64,000 nt of DNA from a virus, in the IMG/VR virus record IMGVR_UViG_3300048919_000265; one strand, 5' to 3'. Shown here one piece after another: positions 1 through 64,000 of the stretch. The notes under the pieces were generated by a model that was not told the origin of the DNA, did no database searches, and was given only the letters and a program-made list of their open reading frames with translations. The translations under genes were made by a program, and so were the position numbers. The stretch's first letter is position 1. Each line of letters begins with the position of its first letter.

Positions 1-410
1 AGAAGAATCACGATCCAAGCTGGAAAGTTCGGTGCAATTGCAGCTAACCAAGTGGTAGAAAACTTAACAAGCATACCCGGAATAATACTATAATCCATCA
101 AAATCAACCAACCCGCTAAAAATCCAATACTAGCATGCATAGCTCTTTGCACATAACTATAAGAAGAGCCTGCAACTGGAAACTCTGATGACATCCATTT
201 ATAACTAAGTGCAGTAAATAACATTGCACAACCACAAATCAAATAAACCAGTGTAGCATGACCTTGACTCAAAACCTGTGCAGAAGCCCAAACCTGCGTA
301 GGTGCAAAAGGAAACATACAAAGCAACCCAAACATAACTAGCATACCAACCGTCAAATCACGGGACAACTCCTGCTTATACCCGCTACCTACTACTACCT
401 TCTCTTCCAC
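1..410 (-). CDS. APC-family amino acid/polyamine permease, PuuP/PlaP-like (5' part; runs off the window edge, absent from ORF track)
   Basis: Manual translation from GTG at 410: MEEKVVVGSGYKQELSRDLTVGMLVMFGLLCMFPFAPTQVW...ALSYKWMSSEFPVAGSSYSYVQRAMHASIGFLAGWLILMDY. The FPxAGSxYxY..GFLAGW..LxDY pattern is typical of APC permeases. Confidence 0.85.
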   Translation of the reverse strand, partial: MEEKVVVGSGYKQELSRDLTVGMLVMFGLLCMFPFAPTQVWASAQVLSQGHATLVYLICGCAMLFTALSYKWMSSEFPVAGSSYSYVQRAMHASIGFLAGWLILMDYSIIPGMLVKFSTTWLAAIAPNFPAWIVIL

Positions 411-518
411 CTAAATCCCTCACTTTATTAGTTTTTATCTAGTTATTAACCCTTTTAATCCTTTTTAATCAAACCTCATGCATTTCCCCCTACTCCAGAA
501 TAAGCCATAAAACAACCA

Positions 519-953
519 TCAACCAAGAGTATTACGAGCATCCCTACTCAACTGAATCAACCCTATCGCCTTAATCAGAGCTAATTCATGTTTATTATTC
601 CAATCTTGCACGCTATTACAAATAAATTCCTTATCCTTCTTCTCTAGCCTAGTAGGTAAGGTTAATTCCTCATCCAAACGTCCATACTCTGATCCTACAG
701 TAAAGAAAAATTCCAAATCCTCTCCTCGAGACTTTGCTTTAGAAGAAGCGAGCGCAACTAACTTATTAGCAACTTCCCTATCCCAAGTGGCACAAATAGC
801 ACCACTAATTAATCCTAATGGCAGACTATGTAACCAAACAATATAAAGTATTCCAGAACGGATCTTGGAAACATCTATGCTATTCTCGGATGTAATATTG
901 CTAGTTTCATCTGATCCCTGTCCTGAATTAGTCTTAGTTATATAGGACTTCAT
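519..953 (-). CDS. hypothetical protein (144 aa)
   Basis: Open frame in the co-directional gene run; no motif recognised. Confidence 0.6.
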   Translation of the reverse strand: MKSYITKTNSGQGSDETSNITSENSIDVSKIRSGILYIVWLHSLPLGLISGAICATWDREVANKLVALASSKAKSRGEDLEFFFTVGSEYGRLDEELTLPTRLEKKDKEFICNSVQDWNNKHELALIKAIGLIQLSRDARNTLG

Positions 954-975
954 CAGTGCATCCTTTCAAAACTAG

Positions 976-1485
976 TTAGCGATTTGAGTACTTACGAATA
1001 AAATCAATCACCGTAAGATCTCTGTCAGCTCCAAATATAACTTTATCCATTTCAACCGCCAGTTTATTCTTAAGAGAATCATATATACTTCCTAGCATAC
1101 CACTTGGATCCTCTTCAAGCTGTTGATAATACGCAGACTTTAACATCTCAACGTCAGAAATTGCAGACTTGCTGCCAGCCTCAATTTCTGATAGTACACA
1201 CAAACTCTTACTTGTCTGTATGAAATAGGTGCCTGTGGTTTCGTCTTTCGAGATAGCGCAGGCCTCCGTAAAGATCACATTCATATTATGCATGGCTACT
1301 ATTACTTCTCCATCAGAAGTCGCAACAATGTTCTCCACTTCTTTGATGTTATCAGAGTACGCAAGAGAAATAAGAGTATTCTCATCCGAGATTCCTTTCT
1401 TAAACTCTTCAAATGTAACCTCTTTAATTTTCGGACTACCTTTAAATACAAGCCCCATCTTCTCAAAATTATTCATTTCTTTCAT
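976..1485 (-). CDS. hypothetical protein (169 aa)
   Basis: Strong SD GGAGGTG upstream of ATG; no motif recognised. Confidence 0.8.
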   Translation of the reverse strand: MKEMNNFEKMGLVFKGSPKIKEVTFEEFKKGISDENTLISLAYSDNIKEVENIVATSDGEVIVAMHNMNVIFTEACAISKDETTGTYFIQTSKSLCVLSEIEAGSKSAISDVEMLKSAYYQQLEEDPSGMLGSIYDSLKNKLAVEMDKVIFGADRDLTVIDFIRKYSNR

Positions 1486-1517
1486 AGTATCACCTCCCTA
1501 AGTTAATAACTCCATAA

Positions 1518-1539
1518 AGTGGAGAAACGTTTCTCCACT
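1518..1539. repeat. perfect 22-bp palindrome agtggagaaacgtttctccact (hairpin or operator)
   Basis: Read directly in the 1486-1638 intergenic region. Confidence 0.85.
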
Positions 1540-1638
1540 CAAGCAATAATTAACTTTTCTTTCTTCCCATCATAAAACTTATTACGCAAATAATTATGAG
1601 TGCCACAAACCCCAACTTATCTGATAAATTATCAAACA

Positions 1639-2004
1639 TTACACGACCGACAATCTAAGAAAGTTCATCAACACTGAACTATCCTTTAAGTTTAATTGTC
1701 TTCCATCCTCATGCCACAGCGTTATTTTATACCCTAAACTAGCCATTAACAATAAACTATCAAGGGTTAAGTTCAACAACCCTATCTGCTCAACCTCATC
1801 ATTCAATTCTACATAAAGAGGAACACTAGTCTCCGCAGGGGTTTCTCGTTCTTGTAAAAATAATATTTCCTCTTTAATGCTGACACCAGAAATAACTACA
1901 CTAGGTCTCAAGATTGGACGACTTTTATCAACCGTGACTTCGAGTTCATCCTCAAAAAGTACAATCTCTTCAACCTCTATTAGATTATCCATAAATATAA
2001 TCAC
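1639..2004 (-). CDS. hypothetical protein (likely start ATG 1992)
   Basis: ORF overlapping the upstream stop; SD-like AGGTG. Confidence 0.7.
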   Translation of the reverse strand: MIIFMDNLIEVEEIVLFEDELEVTVDKSRPILRPSVVISGVSIKEEILFLQERETPAETSVPLYVELNDEVEQIGLLNLTLDSLLLMASLGYKITLWHEDGRQLNLKDSSVLMNFLRLSVV

Positions 2005-2815
2005 CTGCTACGAGGAGTATATCTTCATTCCCAATAACAAATAAGTTTGCTCCGAAATTACTCAACAGCGTAGTAACATCACTCATCTCTGACTGTGTAA
2101 ATAGCAAAGTCCTATAATTAACTTTCTCATACTCGAACTCTTTAAACATGCTTCGTTTAACTACTTTGCCTTCCTTCAGATCTTTCATGACATTGTCAAT
2201 AAATTCATCAATCCGTTGTTGTGAATCTGAAGGCGACAACGGATAAAAATATCTAGAGCCATTAAGCTCGAAAACTCCATGTACTTTAGGTGTAACCCAA
2301 TTAGGTATATTGGTTATCTCAACTGGAACAATAGTAATTCCACATTGCTTCTGGTAATCATTAATAATTTCAGAAACGCGACCTGATGTGTCTTTAACTT
2401 CAATGCCTGGAAGAGGTTTAACTGTGCTCTTCTTGAGCTGCATTACCTTTATATCTTTTCCACTCTCGGCTTTAATGCCTAAGCTATCAAATAGATTACT
2501 AACTCTAAAATCATTAACCGCACTTGCCTTTTCAACCTTGATTACGAGTTCATCTCCCAAATAAGACACTGGTGTTTCAGAAACTACTTCTTTAACAACT
2601 GGAGGTTTAACCTCTTGTACAACAGGACTTGCTTTTTCTACTACAACTTCCTCTAATACCTCAGTTGAAGTATCTGCCTCACTAACCACTGCGGACCCGG
2701 GAATCTGATTACGCACAACTTCTAGTGCAGCACCTTCACTCTCGGGTTCTTTGGCAGTAGTAGCAGGAAAAGAACTCATTTCACTAAACATTCCTACGCG
2801 GTCGGACAAACTCAT
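1985..2815 (-). CDS. hypothetical protein with acidic E/V/P-rich N-terminal linker
   Basis: 276-aa ORF; GAGG SD; ATGA overlap with the upstream gene. Confidence 0.8.
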   Translation of the reverse strand: MSLSDRVGMFSEMSSFPATTAKEPESEGAALEVVRNQIPGSAVVSEADTSTEVLEEVVVEKASPVVQEVKPPVVKEVVSETPVSYLGDELVIKVEKASAVNDFRVSNLFDSLGIKAESGKDIKVMQLKKSTVKPLPGIEVKDTSGRVSEIINDYQKQCGITIVPVEITNIPNWVTPKVHGVFELNGSRYFYPLSPSDSQQRIDEFIDNVMKDLKEGKVVKRSMFKEFEYEKVNYRTLLFTQSEMSDVTTLLSNFGANLFVIGNEDILLVAGDYIYG

Positions 2816-3516
2816 AACGCATCCTCCTCAAAAAACTGCACATTCTTTGCAGCCCTCAAATCATTAAGTTCTACCATCTTTGACATGCGATCCCCCATAT
2901 ACTGCAGTGAAATCGTTCTTCCCCACGGAAAGAAAAACATCAAATATCGTAAGCCTTCAAAAACTCCACTAATTAATTCCGCACTCGTACGACTATACTG
3001 CTGCGCGTGAAGTATATTAACCTGTCTATTCATTTGAACAAACGCAAACCCCCGCACTACGTTCAACAACACATATGAAACTATTCCGTAAAATATTGTA
3101 TAAAAACTATAATTCATAGAAGCTGATTCGCCAAACACAGCATTGATCATAGGTGTGAATATTTCAATCCCCATCAGTGGGGTAAAACCAATAAAGATCA
3201 AAAGGGATGTAATGAGTCCACCCACCAATGTAATTAATCCCAAGACTGGAGTAAACATCGAGTACTCATTGTAAATTGGCAAGTACCGTGCCCACACACC
3301 GCTCGACTCCTCGTGCAATTCCAAATACAGCCTCTGTACTCGAGGCATCACATAAAATTGTTGCCCAAGAAACCAAGCAATTCCTATCCATAAAGGATTA
3401 ATATACTCATTAAATCCATATATAACAATCACAGAAATTAAAAACATCACAAAATAAAGTGCTACATAAATATTATTCTTATCTTTTTTATTCATGCCAC
3501 GAGATTTACTAGACAC
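2812..3516 (-). CDS. multi-pass membrane protein
   Basis: About 5 hydrophobic segments in 234 aa. Confidence 0.75.
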   Translation of the reverse strand: MSSKSRGMNKKDKNNIYVALYFVMFLISVIVIYGFNEYINPLWIGIAWFLGQQFYVMPRVQRLYLELHEESSGVWARYLPIYNEYSMFTPVLGLITLVGGLITSLLIFIGFTPLMGIEIFTPMINAVFGESASMNYSFYTIFYGIVSYVLLNVVRGFAFVQMNRQVNILHAQQYSRTSAELISGVFEGLRYLMFFFPWGRTISLQYMGDRMSKMVELNDLRAAKNVQFFEEDAL

Positions 3517-3518
3517 TA

Positions 3519-4712
3519 CTATTCAACCCCCTCAAAATAAAACATTACCTCATTAAAGAATCTTGTAACCGTCTTTTTATCTCCATCATGCCATAGACGC
3601 TTAATGGCAAAATTATAAGCCTTCTTTACTTTATCTGCCTCAAAATTCCGCATAGCCTGCATTACTTGCTGATACAGTTCTTCATTAAGTTCTTCATCAT
3701 CCTCCATAATTTTGACAAATTTATCTCCAAAAATCATTGCCGACATTGTCATAAAACTTTCTCTAAATTGAGGCATGATCTCTGTCAATCTTGTAAAAGC
3801 CTCTAATGCATCGGCCACTACAACCGCTTGTTCTGCATTATTATAATCCACCATATCTCCAACAAGGGGTATACTACTTTCGATAGATAGTTGCTTTTCT
3901 TCTACCTCAATAGAATTTTGCTCCTGGGTCTCTTCCGACTTATCCTCAGTAGATTCCTTTGCCTCTAATTTTATCTCCTCAATAGATGACTCCTGTTCGG
4001 TTACGCCTATGAGCTGTTCGTCCTCTGTTTCTTTTATGTTTGTCGAATCTGCAGTTACCTCTTCCCTACTTTCGCTAGGGGTTTGATTTCTCTCATCACC
4101 CACATTTGAAACATTATTGGTTTCTTCGAACTCTTTCAAATCGCTCTCACTAGTGGTTTCTTTCGTTTTAATATCTTCCTCAGCTATTACCATTTCTTCT
4201 GCGAGAATCTCAGGTCCTCCACTCTTATTAGCAACAAATGATGGTGCCATAAACACTTCTTCTTCCTCTGAGTCATCAATATCCCACAACGAAAGATCAC
4301 TCATAAGAGATGTAGAATCTGCACTGTCAGGAGATACAGTTTCTTCTTCAACTACTGTTGACTCTTCTGTACCTCCTCCTAGCCCAAATGCTTGTAAAAC
4401 CCCATCAACACTTCCGGCGTACTTAAACAACTCTGCCGTGAAAGTAGTTCCATTTTGTGAGGCCAACAATCCCACCACTTTATGTGGGATCTGCCTAAAC
4501 AAGTTCTCAAACTTATTAATCTCCGCAATATTCCCACTATCGGGAACATACTGCGCGCGCAAATCATCTTTATTAGCAACCGGGAAATACAGATAATAAC
4601 CGCTCAACTCTTCTACGGCTGAACCGCAATCCTCAATAAAAATATAATCCAAATCCTCATCTTTACTTTTGTGCAAAGTCAAAAACTTCTTTGCATACTC
4701 CACAATACCCAT
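3519..4712 (-). CDS. hypothetical protein with long acidic low-complexity centre
   Basis: 397-aa ORF with SD GGAGG; E/S/T-rich central tract. Confidence 0.8.
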   Translation of the reverse strand: MGIVEYAKKFLTLHKSKDEDLDYIFIEDCGSAVEELSGYYLYFPVANKDDLRAQYVPDSGNIAEINKFENLFRQIPHKVVGLLASQNGTTFTAELFKYAGSVDGVLQAFGLGGGTEESTVVEEETVSPDSADSTSLMSDLSLWDIDDSEEEEVFMAPSFVANKSGGPEILAEEMVIAEEDIKTKETTSESDLKEFEETNNVSNVGDERNQTPSESREEVTADSTNIKETEDEQLIGVTEQESSIEEIKLEAKESTEDKSEETQEQNSIEVEEKQLSIESSIPLVGDMVDYNNAEQAVVVADALEAFTRLTEIMPQFRESFMTMSAMIFGDKFVKIMEDDEELNEELYQQVMQAMRNFEADKVKKAYNFAIKRLWHDGDKKTVTRFFNEVMFYFEGVE

Positions 4713-4722
4713 AATTACCCTC

Positions 4723-5646
4723 CTAATGTTCAGAAAGCCGCAGCAACTGGATCAATCCTGTTAGAGTTGCACCCTTCTCCAACTCCCTTTTATATACGTT
4801 TGATAAGTACCATAATTTTTCATAAGACACCATTGAAAACGAATTAATTATTTTCTTTAATAAATACTCACTAATATTTTTCATTTCTGACTTATTAACC
4901 TCATAAAAATTCAGGTAATTCTCTAAAGATAAATTACCTTCCATTAATTTATCATACACATATAAATATGAGTCAAACCTCTTAACTATAAATTTAAATA
5001 TGAAATCAGCCCCGTAACGGTAATTCTCCAGCAAGGAAGCTATCTTAGCAGGAGTAGCAGACTTACTATTACCCCACCGGTCTGATTTTCTTTCCACCCC
5101 TATGATATAATCAAACAACGAATTGAAAGAAATATCAGCTGACTTCCTAGTGTACTTCTTAATACTATCCCTAGAAATATCATCTAGATTACGTAAGATT
5201 TCAACGCTCTCAGTCACCTGTGGTAAATAATAATTATGGCGTTTGGCTATATATTCGGCTATATCCCGAGACACAGAAAGTTCCCGCATAACATAAGAGA
5301 CAATCGTCTTGTTATCAGGATTTAGGTTATTTACAACGTTATGGACTATCCCATTAATTGTAAACAACCTAGACACCTCAGCCAACGCATCTGCACTACG
5401 AACAATTATGACATTTAAATTTTCAGGAATATCAAAATCCTTCATAATTTGCGGCGTATAGTCTCTTAAAAAGAACAAAATCAACCACCCTTCTTTTAAT
5501 AGAGGCGGTGATTTTGCAATCTTCTTAATATCGTGTATGTTATTACTATTCACTGAAATTTGGCTCGTTCTGGGAAATCTAGAGCGAACCTTGTCTATAA
5601 AACTACCAATAGGATAGTTATAATCCTCAGCTAATATAATATTCAA
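4723..5646 (-). CDS. DNA polymerase III delta (HolA)-like clamp-loader subunit, divergent
   Basis: 307 aa. AKSPPLLKEGWLILF resembles the HolA TxPF..exRLVIV segment. IAEYIAKRHNYYLPQVTESVEIL..ISRDSIKKYT..SFNSLFDYI follows the HolA lid/collar pattern. Confidence 0.5.
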   Translation of the reverse strand: MNIILAEDYNYPIGSFIDKVRSRFPRTSQISVNSNNIHDIKKIAKSPPLLKEGWLILFFLRDYTPQIMKDFDIPENLNVIIVRSADALAEVSRLFTINGIVHNVVNNLNPDNKTIVSYVMRELSVSRDIAEYIAKRHNYYLPQVTESVEILRNLDDISRDSIKKYTRKSADISFNSLFDYIIGVERKSDRWGNSKSATPAKIASLLENYRYGADFIFKFIVKRFDSYLYVYDKLMEGNLSLENYLNFYEVNKSEMKNISEYLLKKIINSFSMVSYEKLWYLSNVYKRELEKGATLTGLIQLLRLSEH

Positions 5647-8581
5647 TCACTTGCTCCCCAAACGTAGAAAAATATTTAAGACTTTCCTTAAAACCTTCGG
5701 GATCTTCTTTCAGCAAATCAACTAACGTATTCCCGCTCTCGTCCTCACCATTAGCTATATTGTTCATATCAACACTAGTGTAAATTAAATTATCCAATAT
5801 GAATCTATAACGATGATCCTCCAAAGTTGGTAACTTGGCTATCATCGCAGGATAACTGTCTTCAGTTGACACCGGTAACTTGACTAATCCTAACATATCA
5901 AACATGAATCGCTTACCAAAAAAGTACGAATAGTACACTACATCGTTCATCAGTACTTTGTTTTTGATGCGTTCCTTAGCTGCTCCACTACAGTACTTAA
6001 AATACTCGAACATTCCATAAATAGACAAGTAATAACCACTAACCTGCTTGAATTTCTCTCGATCTTTGTCCACAATCGAAATATTTTCCTCATACGTAGA
6101 ATTACGAAGCCTTTTGAGATAGTTACTAAAATTTTCACCATCCTCACGAGGTAAATAGTAATAAGGCTTCATAAAGCCATGCAACTCTTTACTGGCCTCT
6201 GTTATCTCCTCAAGACTGAACAGGTCTCCATAGTGATATCGATAATAATCCAGTGTATCACTACCTGTTGTTGTTTCTTTTAACTTATCAACAAATTCTT
6301 GACAATTCTTTCTCTCTTGCCTAAGCAATTCTTTAATACCTCTGAAACTATCTGATTTATGCTCAAATCCATCAGATAACTTAACAATCGCGTGAGCAAA
6401 ATTATAATAATCTAAACTCTCTACAGAGCTCTTCAAATCATAAACAGCAGATAACATTCTCATATCAGTAAAACTATAACTTAAAAAATCGGAGATCATA
6501 AATTTTGGTGAAGACTTTGATCCCAGTTCTTTATAGTTATTAGTATACTTACTAATCATTTCTCCTACTTGTTCTTGAGATGTTTTTGTTACCCGTTTTG
6601 ATTCCATTATTGATTTGTTTTTATACTCAAATATGCTCAAAGTCTTCCAAAAATCAGCTATGCTGTCAGATAGATAGTTTATTATCATCAAGATCGAAAC
6701 TTCGTCAATCCACGCACGTAGAGGCTCGCTCACTAACAATCCCTCTAGATCTTCTAAATCGGGACTGACTGTTTGCTTTATGTCAACAAATCTAAACAAA
6801 GTCTTGACAAACTCCAAACTTTCTATAGCTTGAACATAATTTCTCTCATCCTGCTCTAGCTTTTGTTCCAGTAACCTCAGCTCTTGATCAATCAATCCCT
6901 CGATTGCTTCCTTGGTCAGCGAATCAACTTCACCTTCGTACACAAATGAATCAAACTCCAAGCCAAGCTCTTTACACAAATTTTTATACACAAATTCTGC
7001 GTCGTAAGGATCTAATTCACCTTGTAGATATTCTCTATGCATAACTAGTGCCTGCTTCTTGTAAATATATTCCGTGTTCAGGCTATTCAATAGAGCTGGA
7101 TTATTCTTAAAATACAGAAGTAGAGAATTAACAGCTTGCGTTCTGAGAACTGAGAAATCTTCTCGCATCATATTACAATATAGAACCGCAACATCCCATA
7201 ACGTATCTCGCATGTCCACTTTATCATAAATGACCTTGCCTTCTTTCACACTGAATCCACCCTTATTGTCAATCATTCGAGAAGTAAGGCTTTGTACTGA
7301 TTTTAAAGTTTCCAAATACCAACGATACATTAACCCCGTACTATGTTCAGTGACTTCCTTAGGTTCTTCAACAACACTAGGTTCTTTTATGAAAACATCT
7401 GGTTTGACACTTGTCATCAAATCATTTTTAAATTCATAAGATATGACATTACCAAAGCTACTCAGCTTACGAGCACCCCTTCTCCAATCAACCATTAAAT
7501 TTTCATATCTCTTATTGAATTGATTATTAAGGCTTTGATGTTCCATAAAAGTGAAAATATTAAGGTGGCCACATGAAGAACAAACACACGCCAGTGGGAA
7601 CAAAGTTAAGTGTTCATTTCTGTTAAAGCTTCTCTCGCTAACTATAACTTTAAAGAAGCCTTTATCAGAAACATTAGTGTGGTCGCAATTCCCACACGCA
7701 AATTCTGTTTTATCCTTACCCGCCTTAACCCATTTAACATACGAGACAGTATCCAATCCAGCAAATTCTTTTAATGTTTCAAGTGCACTTGCACTACTCT
7801 CAACATATCTTTGAATAATGAATCTATTCATGCTACTTCGAATACTAGCAATAACTTCCGACTTTTCTAGATACAACCGATACCTTGCCATCACTTGTCT
7901 CACATAGGAAGACAATTCTAGTTGCTGCCTTTTATCTAGTCTAACGCTCGCAAGAAATACGTTAACTACTTGCTCCTCGGAGTCAAACCCTTCCACCAAG
8001 GTTAACAAGCGTGCTTGGTGTTCTGGTGTAAGAAATGGAAGCTCTCGAGAATCCATCACAGAATACAACATTTCTCTGCTATTGTTATCGTTATACGATA
8101 AATTACTATTTATCGATTCCTCCAGATATTGCAGCCTCATGGATGAAAAATCGATAAGACTATTTAAACTATCAGTAGGTGATATGTTTATACCTTCTCT
8201 AGTTCGAGAAACAGACTCTTCATTGGCAGGCATCTCCTCGTCTTCATCCAATAAAACTTCAATATCAGACATACCAGAAAAGAAATCATCTAAATCATCT
8301 TCTATTCTTTCTAATCCCGAGATTACTTCTTCATCGAAGAGCTCAATCAACTCTTCTTCCACGGATGGTTCATCTTCCTCAAGTTCGATTAAGGTCTCAT
8401 CGAACTCTTCCGCGGGACCTTCCTCATCCAGCAAAACTATCAATTCTTCGGGTTCTCTTTTATCTTCATCTAGTTCTATAAGCTCATCCTCAATTTCTTC
8501 TACTAGGTTTATCAACTCTTCTTGCCTATCTTCGTCTACAGAAGATAATGATTTGGCAGGGATTTCTCTTCCGTCACGCAT
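5627..8581 (-). CDS. large hypothetical protein with very acidic N-terminus and a putative zinc-binding motif
   Basis: 984 aa; D/E-rich first ~115 aa; CGNC...CVCSSC motif; SD GAGGTGG. Confidence 0.8.
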   Translation of the reverse strand: MRDGREIPAKSLSSVDEDRQEELINLVEEIEDELIELDEDKREPEELIVLLDEEGPAEEFDETLIELEEDEPSVEEELIELFDEEVISGLERIEDDLDDFFSGMSDIEVLLDEDEEMPANEESVSRTREGINISPTDSLNSLIDFSSMRLQYLEESINSNLSYNDNNSREMLYSVMDSRELPFLTPEHQARLLTLVEGFDSEEQVVNVFLASVRLDKRQQLELSSYVRQVMARYRLYLEKSEVIASIRSSMNRFIIQRYVESSASALETLKEFAGLDTVSYVKWVKAGKDKTEFACGNCDHTNVSDKGFFKVIVSERSFNRNEHLTLFPLACVCSSCGHLNIFTFMEHQSLNNQFNKRYENLMVDWRRGARKLSSFGNVISYEFKNDLMTSVKPDVFIKEPSVVEEPKEVTEHSTGLMYRWYLETLKSVQSLTSRMIDNKGGFSVKEGKVIYDKVDMRDTLWDVAVLYCNMMREDFSVLRTQAVNSLLLYFKNNPALLNSLNTEYIYKKQALVMHREYLQGELDPYDAEFVYKNLCKELGLEFDSFVYEGEVDSLTKEAIEGLIDQELRLLEQKLEQDERNYVQAIESLEFVKTLFRFVDIKQTVSPDLEDLEGLLVSEPLRAWIDEVSILMIINYLSDSIADFWKTLSIFEYKNKSIMESKRVTKTSQEQVGEMISKYTNNYKELGSKSSPKFMISDFLSYSFTDMRMLSAVYDLKSSVESLDYYNFAHAIVKLSDGFEHKSDSFRGIKELLRQERKNCQEFVDKLKETTTGSDTLDYYRYHYGDLFSLEEITEASKELHGFMKPYYYLPREDGENFSNYLKRLRNSTYEENISIVDKDREKFKQVSGYYLSIYGMFEYFKYCSGAAKERIKNKVLMNDVVYYSYFFGKRFMFDMLGLVKLPVSTEDSYPAMIAKLPTLEDHRYRFILDNLIYTSVDMNNIANGEDESGNTLVDLLKEDPEGFKESLKYFSTFGEQVIEYYIS

Positions 8582-9600
8582 GCTACCACCTCTTTCAAAT
8601 AAGCAATAAATTCATCAGCTGTGTATACAATTTTATGTGGTCTTTCTATAGCACTGACGTCCGTTCCGGCGGCTTTAGCTCTTTCCAAACGAATATTGTA
8701 ATAGTCTAAAGCCACCTGTTCTCTCGCTTTTGCAGTTTTGTATTTAGCGGTAGAAGAAGGATAATCCGCAAGTAAATAAGGGGTACTATTTATGGCAGTA
8801 TTCATCTCCACATCAAACAGTTGAATGCCGTTCGGAAGTTCGCCAATACTTTTGCATACTTCTATAAACTCACTTTTTGTCGCTCTTATACCTTCGACTG
8901 TGAGATTACCGGTAATACAAACAGTAATCTTCATTTTACCAGGAGCTCTTAATCTTTTAAACACATGATACTCCGCAAATCCAATATCCATTAGAAATTC
9001 ACCCAAATAAAAAGCTTTCATAGGATCATGCGCTCCGCGCAGACTCAAAAATGGGTGGATGCCACCAGCTTCCTTAATTCTTTCCACCAACTCTTTTGTT
9101 CCTGATATATTGGAAAACAAATTTAAGGCTGTGCTATCAAACTCCGGTATAGCCAATCTACTAACCATATCCGCAAATGTCATATATGTTCCACGGACCT
9201 TAGAAATTGCTTCTTTCAAATAAACAAAAGACATACCCCTCGTATCAGACACTAGGTGCTTATCCTCCATAGCTAGTACTTCAACGTGACTACCATAAGT
9301 CATGAAATTTTGGGCATACTTAATAACATTTCTACAAGCAGCCTCTCCTACATTCTTACAATTAAATCTAGTAATCATCTCGTGAAAAGATTTATAAACT
9401 TTTATATGGCACCTAGGATTACAACACATTAACCTTTTTCGATTTCTTGTTATAATCATATCCGATCCGCACTCACATCTATCTTGGAAATAATTAATAA
9501 ATGATTCTGGAATTATGCCACTCTCTTTTGCCTCCCTCACGGGAATAAAATCGAAAAACGCATTAAACGAATCTTTAGCTTTTAACTCCGAAAACTCCAT
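8536..9600 (-). CDS. NAD-dependent DNA ligase C-terminal half (C4 zinc finger, HhH, BRCT)
   Basis: CECGS...CCNPRC zinc finger; HhH-like KNVGEAAC and LAIPEFDSTA; BRCT-like VCITGNL...TPYLLADYPSSTAKYKTAK; own SD GGAGGT. Confidence 0.75.
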   Translation of the reverse strand: MEFSELKAKDSFNAFFDFIPVREAKESGIIPESFINYFQDRCECGSDMIITRNRKRLMCCNPRCHIKVYKSFHEMITRFNCKNVGEAACRNVIKYAQNFMTYGSHVEVLAMEDKHLVSDTRGMSFVYLKEAISKVRGTYMTFADMVSRLAIPEFDSTALNLFSNISGTKELVERIKEAGGIHPFLSLRGAHDPMKAFYLGEFLMDIGFAEYHVFKRLRAPGKMKITVCITGNLTVEGIRATKSEFIEVCKSIGELPNGIQLFDVEMNTAINSTPYLLADYPSSTAKYKTAKAREQVALDYYNIRLERAKAAGTDVSAIERPHKIVYTADEFIAYLKEVVACVTEEKSLPNHYLL

Positions 9601-10464: not shown

Positions 10465-10501
10465 CTCCTCAGTACAATTAACTTCTTCCCTTTATTAGCA
10501 T

Positions 10502-10530
10502 AAAAAGAAAGGGGTGAGTCGCCTCACCCC
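10502..10530 (-). terminator. intrinsic terminator after polA
   Basis: Minus strand GGGGTGAG-GCGA-CTCACCCC followed by TTTCTTTTT; overlaps the polA stop codon. Confidence 0.8.
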
Positions 10531-46598: not shown

Positions 46599-46614
46599 TA
46601 TAATCCCGCCTTCC

Positions 46615-47337: not shown

Positions 47338-47518
47338 GCATATTCCTCCCTAATGATCCTGCATTAACTCTATAGTAACGAGGAAACTTCCCCATCACTA
47401 ACAATTAACGCATATCTTGCTGAACCCAATCTCTTACCCTTACTTCCAATTCACAGTTTAATAATCTGGAACTTTGTAAAGTTCAGGTTGTAGACTTTCG
47501 CAGAAATCTCTATTTATG

Positions 47519-47908: not shown

Positions 47909-47914
47909 TCCTTT

Positions 47915-48900: not shown

Positions 48901-48987
48901 CGAGTATAACACCCTTTCGATCTGAAATAAGACAACACTGTGGATCACTAAGTATAATGCGCATCTAAACACATACTGTCAAGATAT

Positions 48988-58200: not shown

Positions 58201-60892
58201 GTAGAGTGAGCAAATGACCATCATCATAGCTGCTACCTACATGATTCATAGCAGTAACACGAACACTATATTGTCGTCCTCCAGCTAATCCAGAAAATTT
58301 GACAGACGATATCGGAAAATCCACCACTTCTTCTTTACCTGTACCGATAACTTCTATTTTGTATTTCCATCCATCAGTATAAGTTCCTGCCTGAGGCAAA
58401 TCCCATTCTGCCGTGAAATTATCCTCGCCTATTCCAGTAGCTCTAATATTCTTAGGTGCCTCTGGGACATTTTGCAACTTAATAGCTCCAGAAGTGACCT
58501 GTGTAGTATTGCCTGCTTTATCTATGGCTTTTAAATGGACATACCAGACTCCTTCAGATTCTATAGATAAATTATCACTATTAACGCTATCCCAAGAAGT
58601 TGGAATTTGGCTACTGTCAGTAATTCTATAAAAAACCTTGTCAACTCCAGAACCTGTATCGGCTACAGCCACTTCAACATTCGCTTTGCTTGGTGACCAA
58701 TCTCTACTGTCTGGAGTTAATTTAATTGTTGGAGCCGATTTATCTACATACACAGTTATAGTGGTTACTTCACTAATATTACCTACACTGTCAATAGCTC
58801 GGGCACTTAAAGTATGGGTACCATCCGCAGTAACAACTCCACTATTTCCATCTACAAACTCCCCACCATCAACCGAATATTGATATCTAACAGGATTAAG
58901 GTCTGTACTACCGTCTATTTTAAATTCTACATCCTTAGAAACAAACTCAGTATCACTAAGTTTTATGCCCGGCACAGTAGGAGCTGTCAAATCAATCATA
59001 GCTGTAGCATAACTAGGTTGGCTCACGTTGCCTGCATTATCTATCGTACGGAAAGCTACAGAGGTAACTCCCTCCTTAGATACTTCCAAAGGTTGATCAT
59101 AGGCAATCCAATCTCCACCTTCAATAGAGTACTCGTTATGATTGACCCCACTGGCTTCGTCTTTACCTTCCCCCGTGAGAGCTATGGAGACCGGAACTTT
59201 GTTAGTCCAATCTTTTTCGGAGGCTGCTACTAGTGGAGAATTAGGAGCAGTTCTATCTATCTTCACATCCACTTTCGCAGATTCGCTGAAATTACCTGCA
59301 TTATCCTCCGCCCTAACTAAGAGGTTCGTTACGCCCTCTCTTGTTATTTCAATGGGATTTAAATAATCCTTCCAACTAGTACCATCTTCTGAGTATTTCA
59401 ATCTTTTAAATCCACTTAACTTATCCAAACTACTAAGAGCTGTAACCGTTACATCTTTATTAGTCCATGAGGCAGCAGTACTATAAACCTCTGGCACATC
59501 CGGTGCTGTTTTATCTATTTTGGCCAGCACCTGGGCCTCTGGTCCAGCATTACCAACCTTATCAACTGAACGAGCTTTAATCACTATTTCCCCTTCGGTA
59601 TCAACAGGGAAAGGCTGATCATAAGCTTTCCACTCAGATCCATTAATACTATACTCTGTTTCTTTAATGCCTGACTCCTCATCTTTGCCAGCCGTGATTA
59701 TAACTGTAGCGACATCTTTGGTCCAATCTACTGGGTTAATCGCAAGCTCCGGAGCAGTAGGTGCCTTCTTGTCGATCTTAAAAGTTACTTGCGAAACTTC
59801 ACCATTGTTACCTACGTTATCTACAGATCTTGATTTAACAATATGAATTCCCTCATCCGTAAACTCTAACGCACCCTGATAAGTTTTCCATTCGCCATCG
59901 TCTAAAGACCACTCAGTCTTTTCGACACCACTTAAGGCATCTACCCCCGGTATTATTTCCAACCCCACCTTATCAGATACCCATTCGCTAGAAGACAGAT
60001 TCATGACAGTCGCACTTGGACCGCTATGATCAATAGTGAATTCCTCTTCTTTAATGTCGCTATAATTGCCGGCATTATCTACACTTCTAAAATAAATTTT
60101 ATTAGTGCCCTCTGTTTGATATTTGACTGGATTAACATAATTGTTCCAAACCACACCATCATAAGAAAACTCCGATCTATTAATACCACTATCTAAGTCA
60201 AACCCTTTATTAATCGTAAAAGTCACTGCATCAGCCCAACCTGTATTATCCCTTAAAACTGATGGAGCAGATGGTTTAAGTTTATCAATCTTATAAGTCA
60301 TGCTACTAATGACACTCATATTACCAGCATTATCTACGGTTCTAGCCTCCACTAGTGCCGATCCGGAAGCGTTGATTATAAACGGGGCAGTATAGGTCTG
60401 CCAAACTCCAGCATCTATTCTGTACTCAACTCTAGCACTACCCGAAAGAGTATCTGCACCAGCAACAAGTTCTACTGATACATCTGTATTACGATAATTG
60501 CTATTAGTATCTTTAAATGTTGGAGCATTTGGAGGTGTTCTATCAATTCTCACAGCAGATGAAGACAATGGACTTAAATTACCAGCGTTATCAACTGTAT
60601 ATGCTTCAATATTGGTCACACCTTCAGCCGTAACATTAAATGTACCACCATAAGCTCCTAATCCTTTGTTTGTTGCACCAGTTAATCTATAATCTATTCG
60701 ATTAACGCCAGAATATGAGTCCGTACCGGCTACTATACTAACAGGAACATCAGCATCATTAGTCCACCCAACCCCATTGTAAGTAGAAGCAGCCGAAGCC
60801 TGATTTTCCTTTATTAATAATTCAGCTGGGAAATAACTTAGCAACATTGTCACAGCTACAAGCAGCTTTAGAAACTTCTTTTTCTTTTCCAA
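55277..60892 (-). CDS. giant cell-surface protein: signal peptide, about 9 Ig-like repeats, about 10 fibronectin type III repeats, 3 SLH domains
   Basis: Repeats ending [IV]D[KRHL]xxP with D.AGN; FN3 units (W..V.GA..Y.I, L.PGT.Y.V.V.A.N..G); SLH GILKG..FEPDRPVTRMEF, FRPNIDINREQA, GYPDGSFGPKNSLTRAE. Start revised to TTG 60892 (SD AAGGAGG; track 60958). Confidence 0.92.
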   Translation of the reverse strand: MEKKKKFLKLLVAVTMLLSYFPAELLIKENQASAASTYNGVGWTNDADVPVSIVAGTDSYSGVNRIDYRLTGATNKGLGAYGGTFNVTAEGVTNIEAYTVDNAGNLSPLSSSAVRIDRTPPNAPTFKDTNSNYRNTDVSVELVAGADTLSGSARVEYRIDAGVWQTYTAPFIINASGSALVEARTVDNAGNMSVISSMTYKIDKLKPSAPSVLRDNTGWADAVTFTINKGFDLDSGINRSEFSYDGVVWNNYVNPVKYQTEGTNKIYFRSVDNAGNYSDIKEEEFTIDHSGPSATVMNLSSSEWVSDKVGLEIIPGVDALSGVEKTEWSLDDGEWKTYQGALEFTDEGIHIVKSRSVDNVGNNGEVSQVTFKIDKKAPTAPELAINPVDWTKDVATVIITAGKDEESGIKETEYSINGSEWKAYDQPFPVDTEGEIVIKARSVDKVGNAGPEAQVLAKIDKTAPDVPEVYSTAASWTNKDVTVTALSSLDKLSGFKRLKYSEDGTSWKDYLNPIEITREGVTNLLVRAEDNAGNFSESAKVDVKIDRTAPNSPLVAASEKDWTNKVPVSIALTGEGKDEASGVNHNEYSIEGGDWIAYDQPLEVSKEGVTSVAFRTIDNAGNVSQPSYATAMIDLTAPTVPGIKLSDTEFVSKDVEFKIDGSTDLNPVRYQYSVDGGEFVDGNSGVVTADGTHTLSARAIDSVGNISEVTTITVYVDKSAPTIKLTPDSRDWSPSKANVEVAVADTGSGVDKVFYRITDSSQIPTSWDSVNSDNLSIESEGVWYVHLKAIDKAGNTTQVTSGAIKLQNVPEAPKNIRATGIGEDNFTAEWDLPQAGTYTDGWKYKIEVIGTGKEEVVDFPISSVKFSGLAGGRQYSVRVTAMNHVGSSYDDGHLLTLPAAPENIRVEKVDQNYNSGFIYVSKVEGATAYHIFVRKADSGEVIVDDTTVDTTYPFSGMTPGTNYDVNVSAINSTGEGISKGVRFLSLPDNPGEFKSVNVFTDKILLSWNSVSTALKYNLLRDGNQISSANVLNFLDEGLSSGTAYDYSVGAVNDTGLGAYSHLRGIRTLPAAISGITVEGISQTGATLKWNGVKGASEYVIRNGSEVSSTNDTSWVLKDLKPGERYDLTIAAKNESGEGELTPVSFITIPAEPASVKVEEVEEDSAVIKWDLVNGATGYTIEVDGKEYAGNTGEIKVAGLVGSKNYIYKIKASNSSGSSQWVEGKFVTKPHAVNNLAVDNTDTTSLNLVWDKDDTVTKYTIKVKDTAIIESSSDPSAPIQGLEAGTNYDIIVRGENSSGVGKESIINWTTKTSPIDKISSVTDITYSDLKWDAVKGAEKYYISDRGGNILYAGTDTQTRIKGLSGGTPYNLVIWSTNDKDVQSGKVEHSILTKPSSPQLSVDKLSAHSASIAVNFGSNLVDQYVVYVNGKEVLRSMAWQKIFTVEDLMSASTYNITVLPVNSTGEGETTSLTILTATESVKSSDVKVTPKDDNVVVEFPTVDGAKDYVIVDKDGKEVWRGKESPATVEGLTPGTQYDWELVVENQQGTKSEATPIKVLTLPSKPILLKGTATKNDVTLDLSEVRSLGATEYIIYRGGKEIAAIPSSQFKYVDKELISDTEYQYEVRGKNVSGLSITSACLTIKTDKERKNSGDGADGGTIIPPKVETIPTPEVVEEVKSETTKKDSLSDQFSDIDETFSRDEINKLATQGILKGTAPNIFEPDRPVTRMEFAALIVRAIDATPDESVALTFKDINRGAWYTEELKAALATKVAKGFSNIEFRPNIDINREQASKMLVNVLKEQGVTAGSKSSDFTDADRIIGWAKEDVDYASSVGLVGGYPDGSFGPKNSLTRAESAALIYRMIEMIDKDGK

Positions 60893-61040
60893 ATTTAAAT
60901 CCTCCTTACTGTCATTAATTTTAAATATAATTATGTATCTACGATTAGGATTGCACACTTGATGTCATTAACCGTAATCAACCCCTCCAGTTCTTTACAG
61001 TTATTTTACTCCTAGCATCATCCCTTTTCGATTTGGTTAA

Positions 61041-61090
61041 TAAAAAGACGGTGGGTGAATAGGATGTGTTTCTCCTATTCACCCACCGTC
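61041..61090 (-). terminator. strong intrinsic terminator (18-bp perfect stem)
   Basis: gacggtgggtgaatagga-N8-tcctattcacccaccgtc (61047-61090), followed by TTTTTA on the minus strand. Confidence 0.88.
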
Positions 61091-61129
61091 GACTTTAGTA
61101 ACCTAGCCTGATACCCAACTATGTAACTC

Positions 61130-61489
61130 TTAATCATCTGAATCGTCGTCGTTGTCGCTAAGATCATCCAGTCTCTCAACCAACCCACTAAAGTCATTAC
61201 CTCTGCCCAGCTGACTAGCCAAGCTATAAACATCTTCATAGTCTATATTATAGTCAGAAGATAAACTCCGCAAATAAGCTTCCCGATTGCTGTATCCTCT
61301 ATCAAGATAAGGTTTATCTTCTATCATACGTCTTCGAGCAGACACAACTGCTTCCTGGTACTTTATGATCAATTCATTTAAGTCCGCAGCAGCCTTACCC
61401 TTACTCGATAACTTTAATGACTTCAGTGCTTCTTCAATATACAATATTTCCTTAGTATCCACTGACATGTTTAAATTAATCACTTCCAC
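61130..61489 (-). CDS. small phage-like hypothetical protein
   Basis: SD AAGGAGG, GTG start; GYSNREAYLRSL..DY..VY.LA..LG..DFSGLVERLDD. Confidence 0.7.
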   Translation of the reverse strand: MEVINLNMSVDTKEILYIEEALKSLKLSSKGKAAADLNELIIKYQEAVVSARRRMIEDKPYLDRGYSNREAYLRSLSSDYNIDYEDVYSLASQLGRGNDFSGLVERLDDLSDNDDDSDD

Positions 61490-61521
61490 ACCTCCTTACA
61501 TTAGTTAACTGATACTATACA

Positions 61522-61773
61522 TTAATTAACCATTAGAGAAACAGCATCAACCTCCTCCATATCAATAACTATAGCGCCAGGTTTAGTCTCACGAATAAAA
61601 TCAGTAAATGATTGAACACATCCTCGGCCTTCCCACAGACTATATAGAGACTTAATAGCCGAACTTGCTAAATCTGTTACTATTTCCATCATGACCACTC
61701 CATTAAATTTATCCGTAAAATTATATCTAGTCATTATAGCCTCTCCTCCTGCTAAATTTATATGTAAGGGCAT
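61522..61773 (-). CDS. hypothetical protein (likely start MTRYNF)
   Basis: SD GGAGGAG inside the track ORF. Confidence 0.6.
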   Translation of the reverse strand: MPLHINLAGGEAIMTRYNFTDKFNGVVMMEIVTDLASSAIKSLYSLWEGRGCVQSFTDFIRETKPGAIVIDMEEVDAVSLMVN

Positions 61774-61788
61774 AGCCCTAGAAAATCC

Positions 61789-62031
61789 CTAGATGCACAG
61801 TTGTAAATTTTTCACTTTATTAACACTAAACGCAGTACTTTCAATTCCTAAACTCAAAACGATTTGCACATTACCCACTGTGTTTTCCATTTCTTTGTTA
61901 ATCCAGTTACCCAACATACTAGATACTTCACCGCTAAGAATCCCATTAGTTTCTCCATAACAAACAGTCATACACTTCATCTCAATCACCAACCTATTAT
62001 TTTTAGTCAACCAAAAAACTTTAATGCGCAA
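61789..62031 (-). CDS. hypothetical protein (80 aa)
   Basis: SD GGAGG before a TTG start. Confidence 0.55.
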   Translation of the reverse strand: MRIKVFWLTKNNRLVIEMKCMTVCYGETNGILSGEVSSMLGNWINKEMENTVGNVQIVLSLGIESTAFSVNKVKNLQLCI

Positions 62032-62046
62032 CCTCCATTAAAGTGA

Positions 62047-62370
62047 TTATACCTCAGAAACTCCACGACGTGCCACTTCAAGTCGCTTAACAAACTCAAA
62101 ATCATCGTCCCATCGCGGTCTCATATCAACCGACCCAAATCTAAACCCTTGATTCCTGATCAATCTCCAATGACCCACTAATTCATTATCCTTCATTGCA
62201 CAAATAGTAATCATCGTATGTGAATACTTGGGATGTATAGAAAGGGCTTCTTCTAAATCCTCCCCTTCATAGAGAGTTATTGATTCAACAGGAAACAAGT
62301 TCTCAGCAAAAGTCTCTACAGCGTGATATTTGACTTTTTCCATAACGAGCCCTCTTTCAATTAGCTTCAT
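62047..62370 (-). CDS. hypothetical protein (about 98-107 aa)
   Basis: Co-directional ORF; SD AAAGAGGG before MEKVKY. Confidence 0.65.
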   Translation of the reverse strand: MKLIERGLVMEKVKYHAVETFAENLFPVESITLYEGEDLEEALSIHPKYSHTMITICAMKDNELVGHWRLIRNQGFRFGSVDMRPRWDDDFEFVKRLEVARRGVSEV

Positions 62371-62641
62371 TCCACAAATGCTTCACGTCTATGCCCATTC
62401 TATTATTCAAAACAACATGCTTTACTTTCTTATCCACAATAACTACGCTACAATTATTACTTAAATCAACAAACACATTACTGCCCTCAACACTAAGACA
62501 GAAATCAACCACTGCCTTGTAATCTATTAATTCCACGAACTCCAGCAAAACTATCTCGTCATCCTCAGGTATTTGTGCAAATTCGTCTCCCTGCCATAAC
62601 TTCCAATTTCCATCTTCAGACTTAAACAAACTGTATCTCAT
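62357..62641 (-). CDS. hypothetical protein (94 aa)
   Basis: SD GGAGTG before ATG. Confidence 0.65.
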   Translation of the reverse strand: MRYSLFKSEDGNWKLWQGDEFAQIPEDDEIVLLEFVELIDYKAVVDFCLSVEGSNVFVDLSNNCSVVIVDKKVKHVVLNNRMGIDVKHLWNEAN

Positions 62642-62662
62642 GTTATCACTCCAAACTTCTAC

Positions 62663-63103
62663 TTACAGCAATCGCAACTCAACTACTTCCCATTCAGTCT
62701 CAACTACTTCATAATTAACTTCAAGCTTTTGTAAATATTTCTCCGCATAAGCCTGTTCAGATCCTTCCCTAACGAAAAGAAAGTCTCGTTCCTTCGAAAA
62801 TAGGTCATTCAACAATTGCCCTAATTCTTCTCTGGAATAAAAATTATCCTTTTCGTGTGCACAACCATTATCTAAATACTTAACCTTCTCTTCCCGCATA
62901 CTTACAATCTTTCGATAATGCAAGTAAACAGATTCCATCGTCGATTCTTCATTAACTTCTAAAATAAATCCGTTAAACTCACCTAACACAACAGGGTACT
63001 CTGAGTAAGTCCGATACTTGATCATAAGTTCAATAAAAGGTTTAACTCTCCCTGCTTCTGTAGATAGTAATGGACCAGAAATTCTATAAATCATCCTCAA
63101 CAC
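62663..63103 (-). CDS. hypothetical protein (146 aa)
   Basis: Co-directional ORF with SD AGGTG. Confidence 0.65.
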   Translation of the reverse strand: MLRMIYRISGPLLSTEAGRVKPFIELMIKYRTYSEYPVVLGEFNGFILEVNEESTMESVYLHYRKIVSMREEKVKYLDNGCAHEKDNFYSREELGQLLNDLFSKERDFLFVREGSEQAYAEKYLQKLEVNYEVVETEWEVVELRLL

Positions 63104-63108
63104 CTACT

Positions 63109-63516
63109 TTACTTAACTTCAAACTTGACTTTAGTTCCGTCGGGCAAATCTTTCACCCTTTGTGCCACCCACGATCCTGCACCTCTATTATCCTTTGGTG
63201 AAATATATTTAACACTGGCTTCTTTTCCTCCCTCACTACACATGGCCATCGGCCATTCATCACGATCATACCCTTTCTTGATCGGCACATTTTGCAACGA
63301 GACTTTTCTGTGTTTCTCAGCGTTACGTCGGTCAAGAGTGCAAACATTACTTAAGCCTGCGTTTATAGCAGACTTAATATGTTGTGCTGTTTGAGGATAC
63401 TTATTGCTAGGAAAAGGTAAAACCACTTCTTCTGCTTTCTGATGATTAATAATACCTAATGTAATCAGACACCCAAACAACAATACAATTATTGTTCTTA
63501 ATCGTATCACTATCAT
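63109..63516 (-). CDS. nucB: NucA/NucB-family DNase (membrane-anchored or secreted)
   Basis: N-terminal TM; FPSNKYPQTAQHIKSAI...CTLDR...DRDEWPMAMCSEGG..ASVKYISPKDNRGAGSWV matches Bacillus NucA/NucB. Confidence 0.88.
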   Translation of the reverse strand: MIVIRLRTIIVLLFGCLITLGIINHQKAEEVVLPFPSNKYPQTAQHIKSAINAGLSNVCTLDRRNAEKHRKVSLQNVPIKKGYDRDEWPMAMCSEGGKEASVKYISPKDNRGAGSWVAQRVKDLPDGTKVKFEVK

Positions 63517-63517
63517 A

Positions 63518-63889
63518 CTAATTCAGTCCAATGATTCTAAACGCAAACATTTTTCTATCCTTATTAGGATCGTTTTCTCCCAAAACCAAAGGTTTTACTG
63601 AAGTAACCTCAACAAATATCTCCCTTCCTGTATAACTTCCATTAGGGCCTACAAACTCGCGTAATCTAACCCAATCACCCGTTTTTAAATCCTTCATAGA
63701 AGTACCGCAATTTCTAATACCTTGCGATATTTCAGAAAAATCATCTTCAATAGCATTGATTTTGACAACCTTAATTTTATTAAGCAAAGTGTATGCACGT
63801 AAACTTTGCTTGGCCTCTTCCGACTCGATTACATAATTACTAGGTAATACCATTTCTGCATAATTAAAATTTAAACGCATCCTGATCAA
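63518..63889 (-). CDS. ASCH/DUF3850-like (PUA-fold) protein
   Basis: DLKTGDWVRLREF...YTGREIFVEVTSV. Confidence 0.65.
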   Translation of the reverse strand: MIRMRLNFNYAEMVLPSNYVIESEEAKQSLRAYTLLNKIKVVKINAIEDDFSEISQGIRNCGTSMKDLKTGDWVRLREFVGPNGSYTGREIFVEVTSVKPLVLGENDPNKDRKMFAFRIIGLN

Positions 63890-63922
63890 TCCTTCACTAT
63901 ATTATGATATGATTCCATATAC

Positions 63923-64000
63923 TTAAAGAGAATCTATAACAAACTTAACAACTGCCTCATACAAAATATTATGAGTTTGATCCCACAAACATCCGTCTTT
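63923..64000 (-). CDS. 3' end of a gene truncated by the window edge
   Basis: KDGCLWDQTHNILYEAVVKFVIDSL* in an open frame from the window end. Confidence 0.45.
   Translation of the reverse strand, partial: KDGCLWDQTHNILYEAVVKFVIDSL

Follow-up and report, generated by a model that had tools for sequence, protein, structure and literature searches.

A putative plasmid-like giant element of Bacillota with genes for a single-chain RNA polymerase, replication proteins and exchangeable surface cargo

Plasmids of bacteria are generally assumed to rely on the RNA polymerase (RNAP) of their host, and where mobile DNA encodes cell-type multisubunit polymerases, the known cases are mostly jumbo phages. 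The stretch of DNA considered here, 64,000 nucleotides of the IMG/VR virus record IMGVR_UViG_3300048919_000265 (hereafter the window), carries a gene for a single-chain β-β′ RNAP in one long array with genes for a family-A DNA polymerase (PolA), a LigA-type ligase protein, a Tad-like pilus and large surface proteins. The reading favoured here, with moderate confidence, is that the window belongs to a plasmid-like giant extrachromosomal element of Bacillota with its own transcription machinery and part of its own replication machinery.

Several described systems share parts of this arrangement. Kiguchi et al. (2025, PMC12340149) described the Inocles, giant circular extrachromosomal elements of oral Streptococcus. 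The Inocles and the element are alike in being without bacterial marker genes and in combining DNA-repair or replication genes with cell-wall or surface genes. According to that paper, the Inocles measure 395 kb, encode Pol III alpha, gyrase and RecD-type proteins shared with Streptococcus and carry the marker InoC, with no RNA polymerase mentioned, whereas the element is about 212 kb, encodes a fused β-β′ RNAP, PolA and a LigA-type ligase, and has another likely host. The second group are the mReC, RNAP-encoding jumbo Caudovirales (Weinheimer and Aylward 2020, PMC7481178). These resemble the element in their large size and in their deeply diverged β and β′ homologues, which are recognised by cellular RNAP models. 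The T4-type capsid, terminase, baseplate, portal and tail genes of mReC are recognisable, whereas the 95 kb of the element that were read showed no such genes.

The closest functional precedent is provided by the yeast cytoplasmic linear virus-like elements pGKL1/2, which encode their own DNA polymerase and a non-canonical multisubunit-type RNAP, so that their transcription does not depend on the host enzyme, and have no capsid (Sykora et al. 2018, PMC6211774). These elements are eukaryotic, linear and cytoplasmic, with a reduced two-subunit RNAP, in contrast to the bacterial, probably circular element of about 212 kb with its PolA and full-length β-β′ chain. They are also far smaller and have a protein-primed polymerase. 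Fusion of rpoB and rpoC in one frame, as in the element, is found in the chromosomes of Helicobacter and Wolbachia. There, the fusion is the only RNAP of the cell and branches with its own phylum, while the RNAPs of the element and its relatives make up a clade of their own on a long branch and occur alongside the normal rpoB and rpoC of the host. Finally, Tad/Flp pili and the element share a CpaF-like ATPase, an RcpC/CpaB protein, a TadZ-like protein and two polytopic membrane proteins in one operon. The ATPase of the element differs by an N-terminal extension of about 200 aa (amino acids), and neither an Flp pilin nor a prepilin peptidase could be recognised in the operon. Remote CpaF homologues, 21-25% identical, are present on plasmids of Clostridium, Paenibacillus and Thermobacillus.

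The RNA polymerase and its family

The RNAP of the window (Table 1) contains seven RNAP Pfam domains in the order β then β′. An RNAP had been reported here by a sequence-only reading of the window. The catalytic motifs GRYGNKG and NADYDGD of the enzyme are both intact, and they are invariant in 12 of 12 family members compared. The identity to cellular rpoB/rpoC products is 26-30%, compared with about 22%, over partial matches, to phage RNAPs. In a FastTree phylogeny, 15 family RNAPs form one long-branched clade apart from 14 bacterial β+β′ sequences, among which the Wolbachia fusion, a 2853-aa open frame, branches with Pseudomonadota. The position of the clade outside the sampled phyla, Bacillota included, is provisional, as its branches are long. 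Sigma, alpha and omega partners were not recognised among the window proteins.

The enzyme belongs to a large family, with 511 significant relatives of 2400-2900 aa, many of them on contigs of 130-310 kb. Nearly all come from Logan or ENA assemblies, and few from NCBI isolates. The isolate carriers are ordinary Clostridia, Lachnospiraceae bacterium 47-T17 and Paraclostridium bifermentans GCA_043845765.1 (JBAMGX010000008.1), in which the family RNAP is encoded beside normal rpoB and rpoC, and carriage in cultured isolates fits stable carriage. Among GTDB genomes, the RNAP was found in 0 of 401 from the taxonomic family of a Marvinbryantia metagenome-assembled genome and in 1 of 112 from that of Faecalimicrobium, on fragmentary contigs. 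A profile scan of genome contigs with the RNAP alignment and universal-motif patterns returned only cellular rpoB/rpoC; open frames of about 2400 aa met in that scan were adjacent rpoB and rpoC genes, not fusions. The identical RNAP of one relative occurs on three contigs above 200 kb (the one shown here has 241,268 bp, the longest 304,644 bp), which may point to variants of different size in that lineage or to concatenation during assembly. No description of this family was found in the literature.

This distribution bears on a different explanation, namely that the element is a jumbo phage or phage-plasmid. The window would then be an early or middle region with polymerase, ligase, anti-defence and host-takeover genes, the virion module would be located in the unread part or be too divergent to be recognised, and the pilus and adhesins would be lysogenic-conversion cargo. 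RNAP-encoding jumbo phages do exist (PMC7481178). We nevertheless consider this explanation unlikely, as the RNAP is nearer to cellular enzymes than to those of phages, and the family is represented in cultured isolates. Moreover, no family member was present in 50,697 phage records or in the plasmid collection, where the best matches were cellular rpoB/rpoC, and two scans of IMG/VR, one of them covering the best 80 RNAP matches, yielded none.

The order of genes around the RNAP, whose recurrence elsewhere the sequence-only reading had named as informative, was compared in three relatives: a JGI contig of 230,887 bp (L085/L171, RNAP 61% identical), a Logan contig of 241,268 bp (L086, 44%) and P. 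bifermentans (L087, 33%). The core order is kept in these assemblies down to 33% RNAP identity. Given as names or protein lengths in aa, the shared order is 338, LRR, 199, 208, 181, ligase, 376, 94, 78, RNAP, HNH-like, 793, 84, 260, PolA, 278, 354, 984, 307, 397, 234, 276, 121. The last part of it, from 354 to 121, recurs as 341-990-304-391-231-288-121 in the relative L172. Two kinds of DNA are distinguished in the element. The first is a conserved co-oriented core, which includes the ligase, the RNAP, the 793-aa protein, PolA and about 15 orphans. The second is replaceable cargo, which consists of envelope-matched adhesins, the Tad-like pilus, transporters, a secreted DNase and toxin-antitoxin (TA) or defence genes.

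Neighbouring and replication proteins of the core

The gene that directly follows the RNAP stop codon, in the element as well as in its relatives, encodes an HNH-like protein. Its signature is weak here and clear in Paraclostridium, where the protein in the same place (L087:17543-17968) is 43% identical to that of the window. An HNH endonuclease adjoining the RNAP would suit a jumbo phage. On the other side of the RNAP, the 78-, 94- and 376-aa proteins have no PDB or Pfam similarity. The first two of these (26024-26576) are encoded directly upstream of the RNAP in all relatives and could be small polymerase subunits.

The 793-aa protein is present in every relative examined. A word-based homologue search found 3 proteins, and an exhaustive profile search extended this to 142 representative clusters. 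Its AlphaFold (AF2) model, based on an 80-sequence alignment (predicted local distance difference test, pLDDT, 89), is nearly all helical with a small C-terminal sheet, and gave no Foldseek match. Sigma region-2 domains (SigR, RpoE, AlgU, SigK, sigma-H, SigC and PhyR) align with residues 88-186 of the model at Z 4.3-5.7, which is the level of unrelated helical bundles and below the meaningful threshold. The same alignments were obtained from a separately folded 200-residue N-terminal piece. The protein is a candidate transcription factor of the element, for which a sigma-like role is a lead from modelling and not a finding. Its nearest neighbours in feature space are viral hypothetical proteins with a score of 0.89, under the 0.9 line of the tool; this is a further point on the side of a jumbo phage. 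For the 793-aa protein, as for that of 984 aa, the ESM Atlas otherwise gave nothing that could be followed, and single-sequence PDB searches of the 793-aa, 338-aa, 376-aa and ligase proteins returned nothing useful.

The replication proteins reported by the sequence-only reading fared unequally. PolA stands, with polymerase and 3′-5′ exonuclease domains, long N- and C-terminal extensions and an IHDE motif at residue 934. It is 40-57% identical to its orthologues in the three relatives and 22-25% identical to phage PolA proteins. Of the proposed split LigA, the first half holds. The adenylation protein matches the adenylation domain of Staphylococcus aureus LigA in profile comparison (5.6e-6, with the PDB match stopping at position 316 of 415), and its KVDG motif is present, KxDG being invariant in 4 orthologues. 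The second half found no support: the following 376-aa gene (26815-27945) has no detectable similarity to the LigA C-terminal part (OB fold, zinc finger, HhH and BRCT modules), either alone or as a 4-sequence profile. The HolA-like gene was not confirmed, as no window protein matched a clamp-loader family in Pfam or NCBIfam, and the only one with a Walker A motif is the CpaF-like ATPase.

The remaining core proteins are mostly orphans. Those of the array downstream of PolA (519-9600) have no Pfam, PHROG or NCBIfam match and no Walker A motif. For the 338-aa protein at the other end of the core, a marginal RpoL match in NCBIfam (E 0.069) was dropped because of its N-terminal transmembrane (TM) segment.

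Table 1. Positions of the features discussed, counted along the 64,000-nucleotide window (ORF, open reading frame)
Feature	Position	Strand	Evidence and remarks
APC-family permease, N-terminal part	1-410	-	AA_permease / AA_permease_2; full gene 454 aa, runs out of the window
Conserved core proteins of 354, 984, 307, 397, 234, 276 and 121 aa, followed by ORFs of 169 and 144 aa	519-9600	-
278-aa membrane-anchored protein	9628-10464	-	Downstream of PolA; TM near residue 35; orthologues in L085, L086, L087
Family-A DNA polymerase (PolA), 1262 aa	10524-14312	-	DNA_pol_A 2.5e-30; 3′-5′ exonuclease exo1 2.9e-5
Conserved genes of 260, 84 and 89 aa	14328-15630	-	Between the 793-aa gene and PolA; orthologues in L085-L087; no family match
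793-aa conserved protein	15620-18001	-	Downstream of RNAP, after the HNH-like gene
HNH-like protein, 180 aa	18016-18558	-	Directly after RNAP; weak HNH, E 0.004
Single-chain β-β′ RNAP, 2482 aa	18564-26012	-	Rpb2_6 4.4e-50; Rpb1_2/3/4/5
Conserved proteins of 78, 94 and 376 aa	26024-27945	-	Between ligase and RNAP; orthologues in relatives
LigA-type (NAD-dependent) adenylation protein, ~413 aa	27963-29240	-	DNA_ligase_aden weak; phrog_3869 1.8e-18
Proteins of 181, 208 and 199 aa; 229-aa LRR protein; 338-aa membrane-anchored protein	29218-32714	-	LRR_8 3.5e-19; orthologues in L085, L086
Tad-like pilus operon, 9 genes	32948-41142	-	Order: 307-aa TM; 290-aa CpaB/RcpC-like; 259-aa TadZ-like P-loop; 573-aa CpaF-like ATPase; 312- and 359-aa polytopic; 137-, 191- and 248-aa with N-terminal TM
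Secreted pair: 420-aa protein with three N-terminal SLH domains and 970-aa Ig-like protein	41486-45661	-	SLH 2.1e-30; 420-aa protein at 44399-45661
PIN and 88-aa upstream partner; Fic; DUF6036 nucleotidyltransferase and 149-aa partner	45718-49212	-	TA/defence-like; gene overlaps
Secreted proteins of 219, 319, 753 and 353 aa	49274-54980	-	N-terminal hydrophobic segments; 753-aa protein at 51630-53891 and 353-aa protein at 53919-54980, both part of the adhesin module
1893-aa surface protein	55277-60958	-	Signal peptide; Ig-like/four fn3 (8.8e-51); three C-terminal SLH (2.2e-26)
Small accessory ORFs	61130-63889	-	Include the secreted NucA/NucB-like DNase
NucA/NucB-like DNase	63109-63516	-	DNase_NucA_NucB 1.9e-5; N-terminal TM or signal segment
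Hairpin-bearing gaps	33695-33754, 51492-51629, 32715-32947, 41143-41485, 60959-61129, 1486-1638
TTGATGCTA-like sites	41160-41168, 51545-51553, 61013-61021, 10496-10504, 55098-55106	-

Extent and nature of the element

The window is unidirectional, as had been stated from its sequence, with 59 of 59 non-overlapping ORFs on the minus strand. Intergenic DNA amounts to 2.8 kb in total, with 17 gaps of at least 40 bp. The GC content is 36-40%, and the plus-strand GC skew stays between -0.23 and -0.34 across the whole window without a switch. The RNAP is found letter for letter on the Logan contig SRR35925594_85661 of 212,357 bp, where the window occupies about 146,737-210,736 in reverse-complement orientation. 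Beyond window position 1, this contig continues for 1.6 kb, through the permease and a 134-aa gene, to its end. The same RNAP (with another start call) and the same genes are encoded, with another break point, on a JGI contig of 212,527 bp; by its offsets, this second contig holds at least 56 kb on the position-1 side of the window and at least 38 kb on the other side. The near-equal sizes and different break points of the two contigs argue for a circle of about 212 kb. When the last gene of the Logan contig was searched against metagenome contigs for circularity, nothing was found.

The portion read comprises 95 kb (record 117,581-212,357), or about 45% of the element; the window by itself makes up about 30%, roughly a third, of the element. 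Every called gene from record position 117,581 to the end is co-oriented. The ~30 kb upstream of the window (record 117,581-147,000; L083/L084/L090) contain about 60 small co-oriented ORFs, mostly orphans, among which are genes for HipA_C, a NERD-UvrD helicase, MazE, PemK, a T4 endonuclease V-type Pyr_excise protein, two pentapeptide-repeat proteins, YpsA and YitT, as well as two DUF7448 genes and DUF3892.

A cellular chromosome is excluded for practical purposes. The host chromosome had been named at the outset as a possible refutation of the megaplasmid-like reading, and it is contradicted by a contig of about 212 kb in two independent assemblies and by the content of the 95 kb, where precomputed Pfam annotations and Rfam show no rRNA, ribosomal-protein gene, translation factor or other standard core operon. 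The tRNA search proposed at the outset also came back empty for the 95 kb, and the window has no Rfam family and no notable tandem repeats either. It might still be argued that the window is part of a very reduced cell genome, such as that of an episymbiont or endosymbiont, in which a cell-type RNAP, PolA, ligase, permease and envelope proteins could well lie on one strand with strong GC skew. The same absence of tRNA, rRNA and translation genes, the total size of about 212 kb, the predominance of orphan proteins and the occurrence of the family inside Clostridia isolate assemblies, beside a normal RNAP, make this highly improbable.

In line with the sequence-only reading, Pfam and PHROGs reveal no virion or conjugation hallmark in the window, where PHROG matches were at the level of domains. 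Over the 95 kb, no capsid, terminase, portal, tail, baseplate, integrase or recombinase family was found (Pfam; PHROGs on 55 window proteins). For a jumbo phage, the size of about 212 kb, the total co-orientation, the very high coding density, the extended runs of short orphan ORFs that include TA or defence-like genes and the Pyr_excise gene would all be in keeping. The absence of virion families from the 95 kb argues against it, given that the major capsid protein and TerL of mReC are recognised by Pfam, and so does the FtsK/SpoIIIE ATPase of a relative.

This ATPase brings in a further explanation, in which an integrative (conjugative) element or a genomic island was either captured in its excised, circular form or separated from the chromosome by the assembler. 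In the Logan relative (L173:14505-15137, 20324-20882), an RNase_T (DnaQ-like) exonuclease and an FtsK_SpoIIIE ATPase, the latter preceded by 91- and 113-aa proteins, are encoded about 10-21 kb downstream of PolA. ATPases of the FtsK/SpoIIIE type drive the transfer of several Gram-positive integrative elements, and in isolate assemblies the family is found on separate, short contigs with unexplained ends. Nevertheless, two assemblies stop at 212 kb with different break points and no chromosomal flank, many relatives lie on contigs of a similar size (160-310 kb), integrase and recombinase families are missing from the 95 kb, and the element's own PolA and ligase argue for autonomous replication. 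An integrative origin is thus improbable.

In the favoured reading of a plasmid-like giant element, the DNA would be kept as a low-copy plasmid-like replicon, partly copied and sealed by its own PolA and ligase. The RNAP would transcribe the long one-directional gene arrays and so free them from host promoter control. The cargo would change the adhesion of the host cell to surfaces or other cells and may also aid transfer of the element. The autonomy of the element and the activity of its polymerase are what we infer from these genes.

Several observations weigh against this reading. A replication initiator, partition gene, relaxase or VirB4 was not seen in the 95 kb. Record positions 1-117,580, about 55% of the element, could hold a virion module, a relaxase or a Rep gene, and since most core proteins are orphans, a very divergent capsid is possible. 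The coding-strand GC skew is constant at +0.24 to +0.36 over at least 95 kb, and its combination with total co-orientation is more typical of some phages than of plasmids. The circular form is probable, as judged from two contig sizes and offsets. The host of the window's copy is probably a member of Paenibacillaceae from a root or soil setting, not the gut, as judged from one cargo gene and one sample label, and a GC content of 36-40% is below that typical of Paenibacillaceae.

A further-reaching proposal is that the family is a distinct class of autonomous Bacillota elements, neither plasmid nor virus by hallmarks. Its members would combine private transcription (the single-chain β-β′ enzyme, an alpha-like subunit and the 793-aa protein in place of sigma) with their own PolA and ligase and with exchangeable adhesin or pilus cassettes. 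We put this forward tentatively, as plausible rather than probable. If true, such a class would parallel, in bacteria, the yeast cytoplasmic virus-like elements or the archaeal Borgs.

Surface cargo, host and wider meaning

The Tad-like pilus operon and the SLH-anchored Ig/FN3 proteins of the sequence-only reading were both recovered, together with its permease, DNase and TA modules (Table 1). In the operon, the 290-aa protein passes the RcpC cut-off (30.3 bits against 28.8), and the best solved relatives of the 573-aa ATPase are CpaF proteins (1.5e-7), with the Walker A motif at residue 324. The 312- and 359-aa polytopic proteins are assigned to TadB/C by topology alone. No Flp pilin or TadV prepilin peptidase was matched by Pfam in the window, and no clear G/XXXXEY motif was seen on reading the three small proteins with N-terminal TM segments and a 43-aa ORF (41298-41429). 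Of the secreted SLH pair, both members have signal-like N-termini, and the 970-aa protein has Ig-domain PHROG matches at residues 219-301. PHROG matches to a 'major tail protein' (phrog_1696) and an 'endolysin' were rejected, since it was the SLH domain in the 420-aa protein that produced them.

The block made up of the Tad operon, the PIN/Fic/DUF6036 genes and the SLH-420/970 pair (~32.9-49 kb) is missing at this position from each of the three relatives (3/3), and in the JGI relative homologues from the adhesin module lie directly upstream of the core. In the element, the block is therefore an accessory insertion between the adhesin module and the core, and the operon is accessory cargo. The pairing of RNAP and pilus, which the sequence-only reading had singled out, is peculiar to the window's copy and no family trait.

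The adhesin module itself has counterparts. In the JGI relative (L171), a 1603-aa adhesin directly upstream of the core is 33% identical over repeats to the 1893-aa protein, and its Ig-like repeats are matched by the 353-aa secreted protein of the window. Beside this adhesin (L171:3563-9970), a 509-aa protein is 37% identical to the 753-aa secreted protein, so that stalk and 'head' adhesin proteins appear to travel together. At the site of the adhesin module, P. bifermentans (L087:1-5585) encodes a 2872-aa SpaA-repeat protein, behind which come genes for a sortase and a NADAR-domain protein. The family thus seems to keep a large surface protein beside its core and to change the anchoring, SLH or sortase, with the envelope of the host. 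Remodelling of the host surface by the cargo is a reasonable inference, and it gains support from the other envelope-matched adhesins that relatives carry at the same site.

As for the host, the permease is cargo of clearly cellular origin, its best named homologues are from Cohnella and Paenibacillus (54-65% identity), and SLH anchoring suits an S-layer-bearing member of Bacillota. The family includes Clostridia, and the window's copy points to Paenibacillaceae. One public sequencing run, labelled root metagenome, holds DNA of the element and may be the source sample; no RNA sequencing run holding it is listed.

The intergenic gaps contain two recurrent kinds of sequence. GC-rich perfect hairpins occur in many of them, often with (T)ACAT(A) a few bases on, e.g., CCCCTCCTACATATACG and CTCAATACATATAAG. 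The word TTGATGCTA or a one-mismatch variant, with a TA-rich hexamer after the motif, is present in 5 of the 17 intergenic regions and resembles an extended -10 (TGnTAnnnT) without a -35. As an element-specific promoter, this word was dropped, with 34 matches against 21 expected window-wide, a mild enrichment.

The family counts more than 500 clusters on 130-310 kb elements with a conserved RNAP-PolA-ligase core, no recognisable virion genes in the parts read and carriage in culturable Clostridia. Should it hold up, it would broaden the spectrum of extrachromosomal elements known from bacteria. The position of its RNAP clade outside the sampled bacterial phyla, provisional as it is, bears on the history of the enzyme. 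The P. bifermentans isolate would then be a tractable system for the insulation of element transcription from that of the host. Swappable SLH-anchored, sortase-anchored and Tad-like pilus modules suggest that such elements may reprogram adhesion in soil and gut Bacillota.

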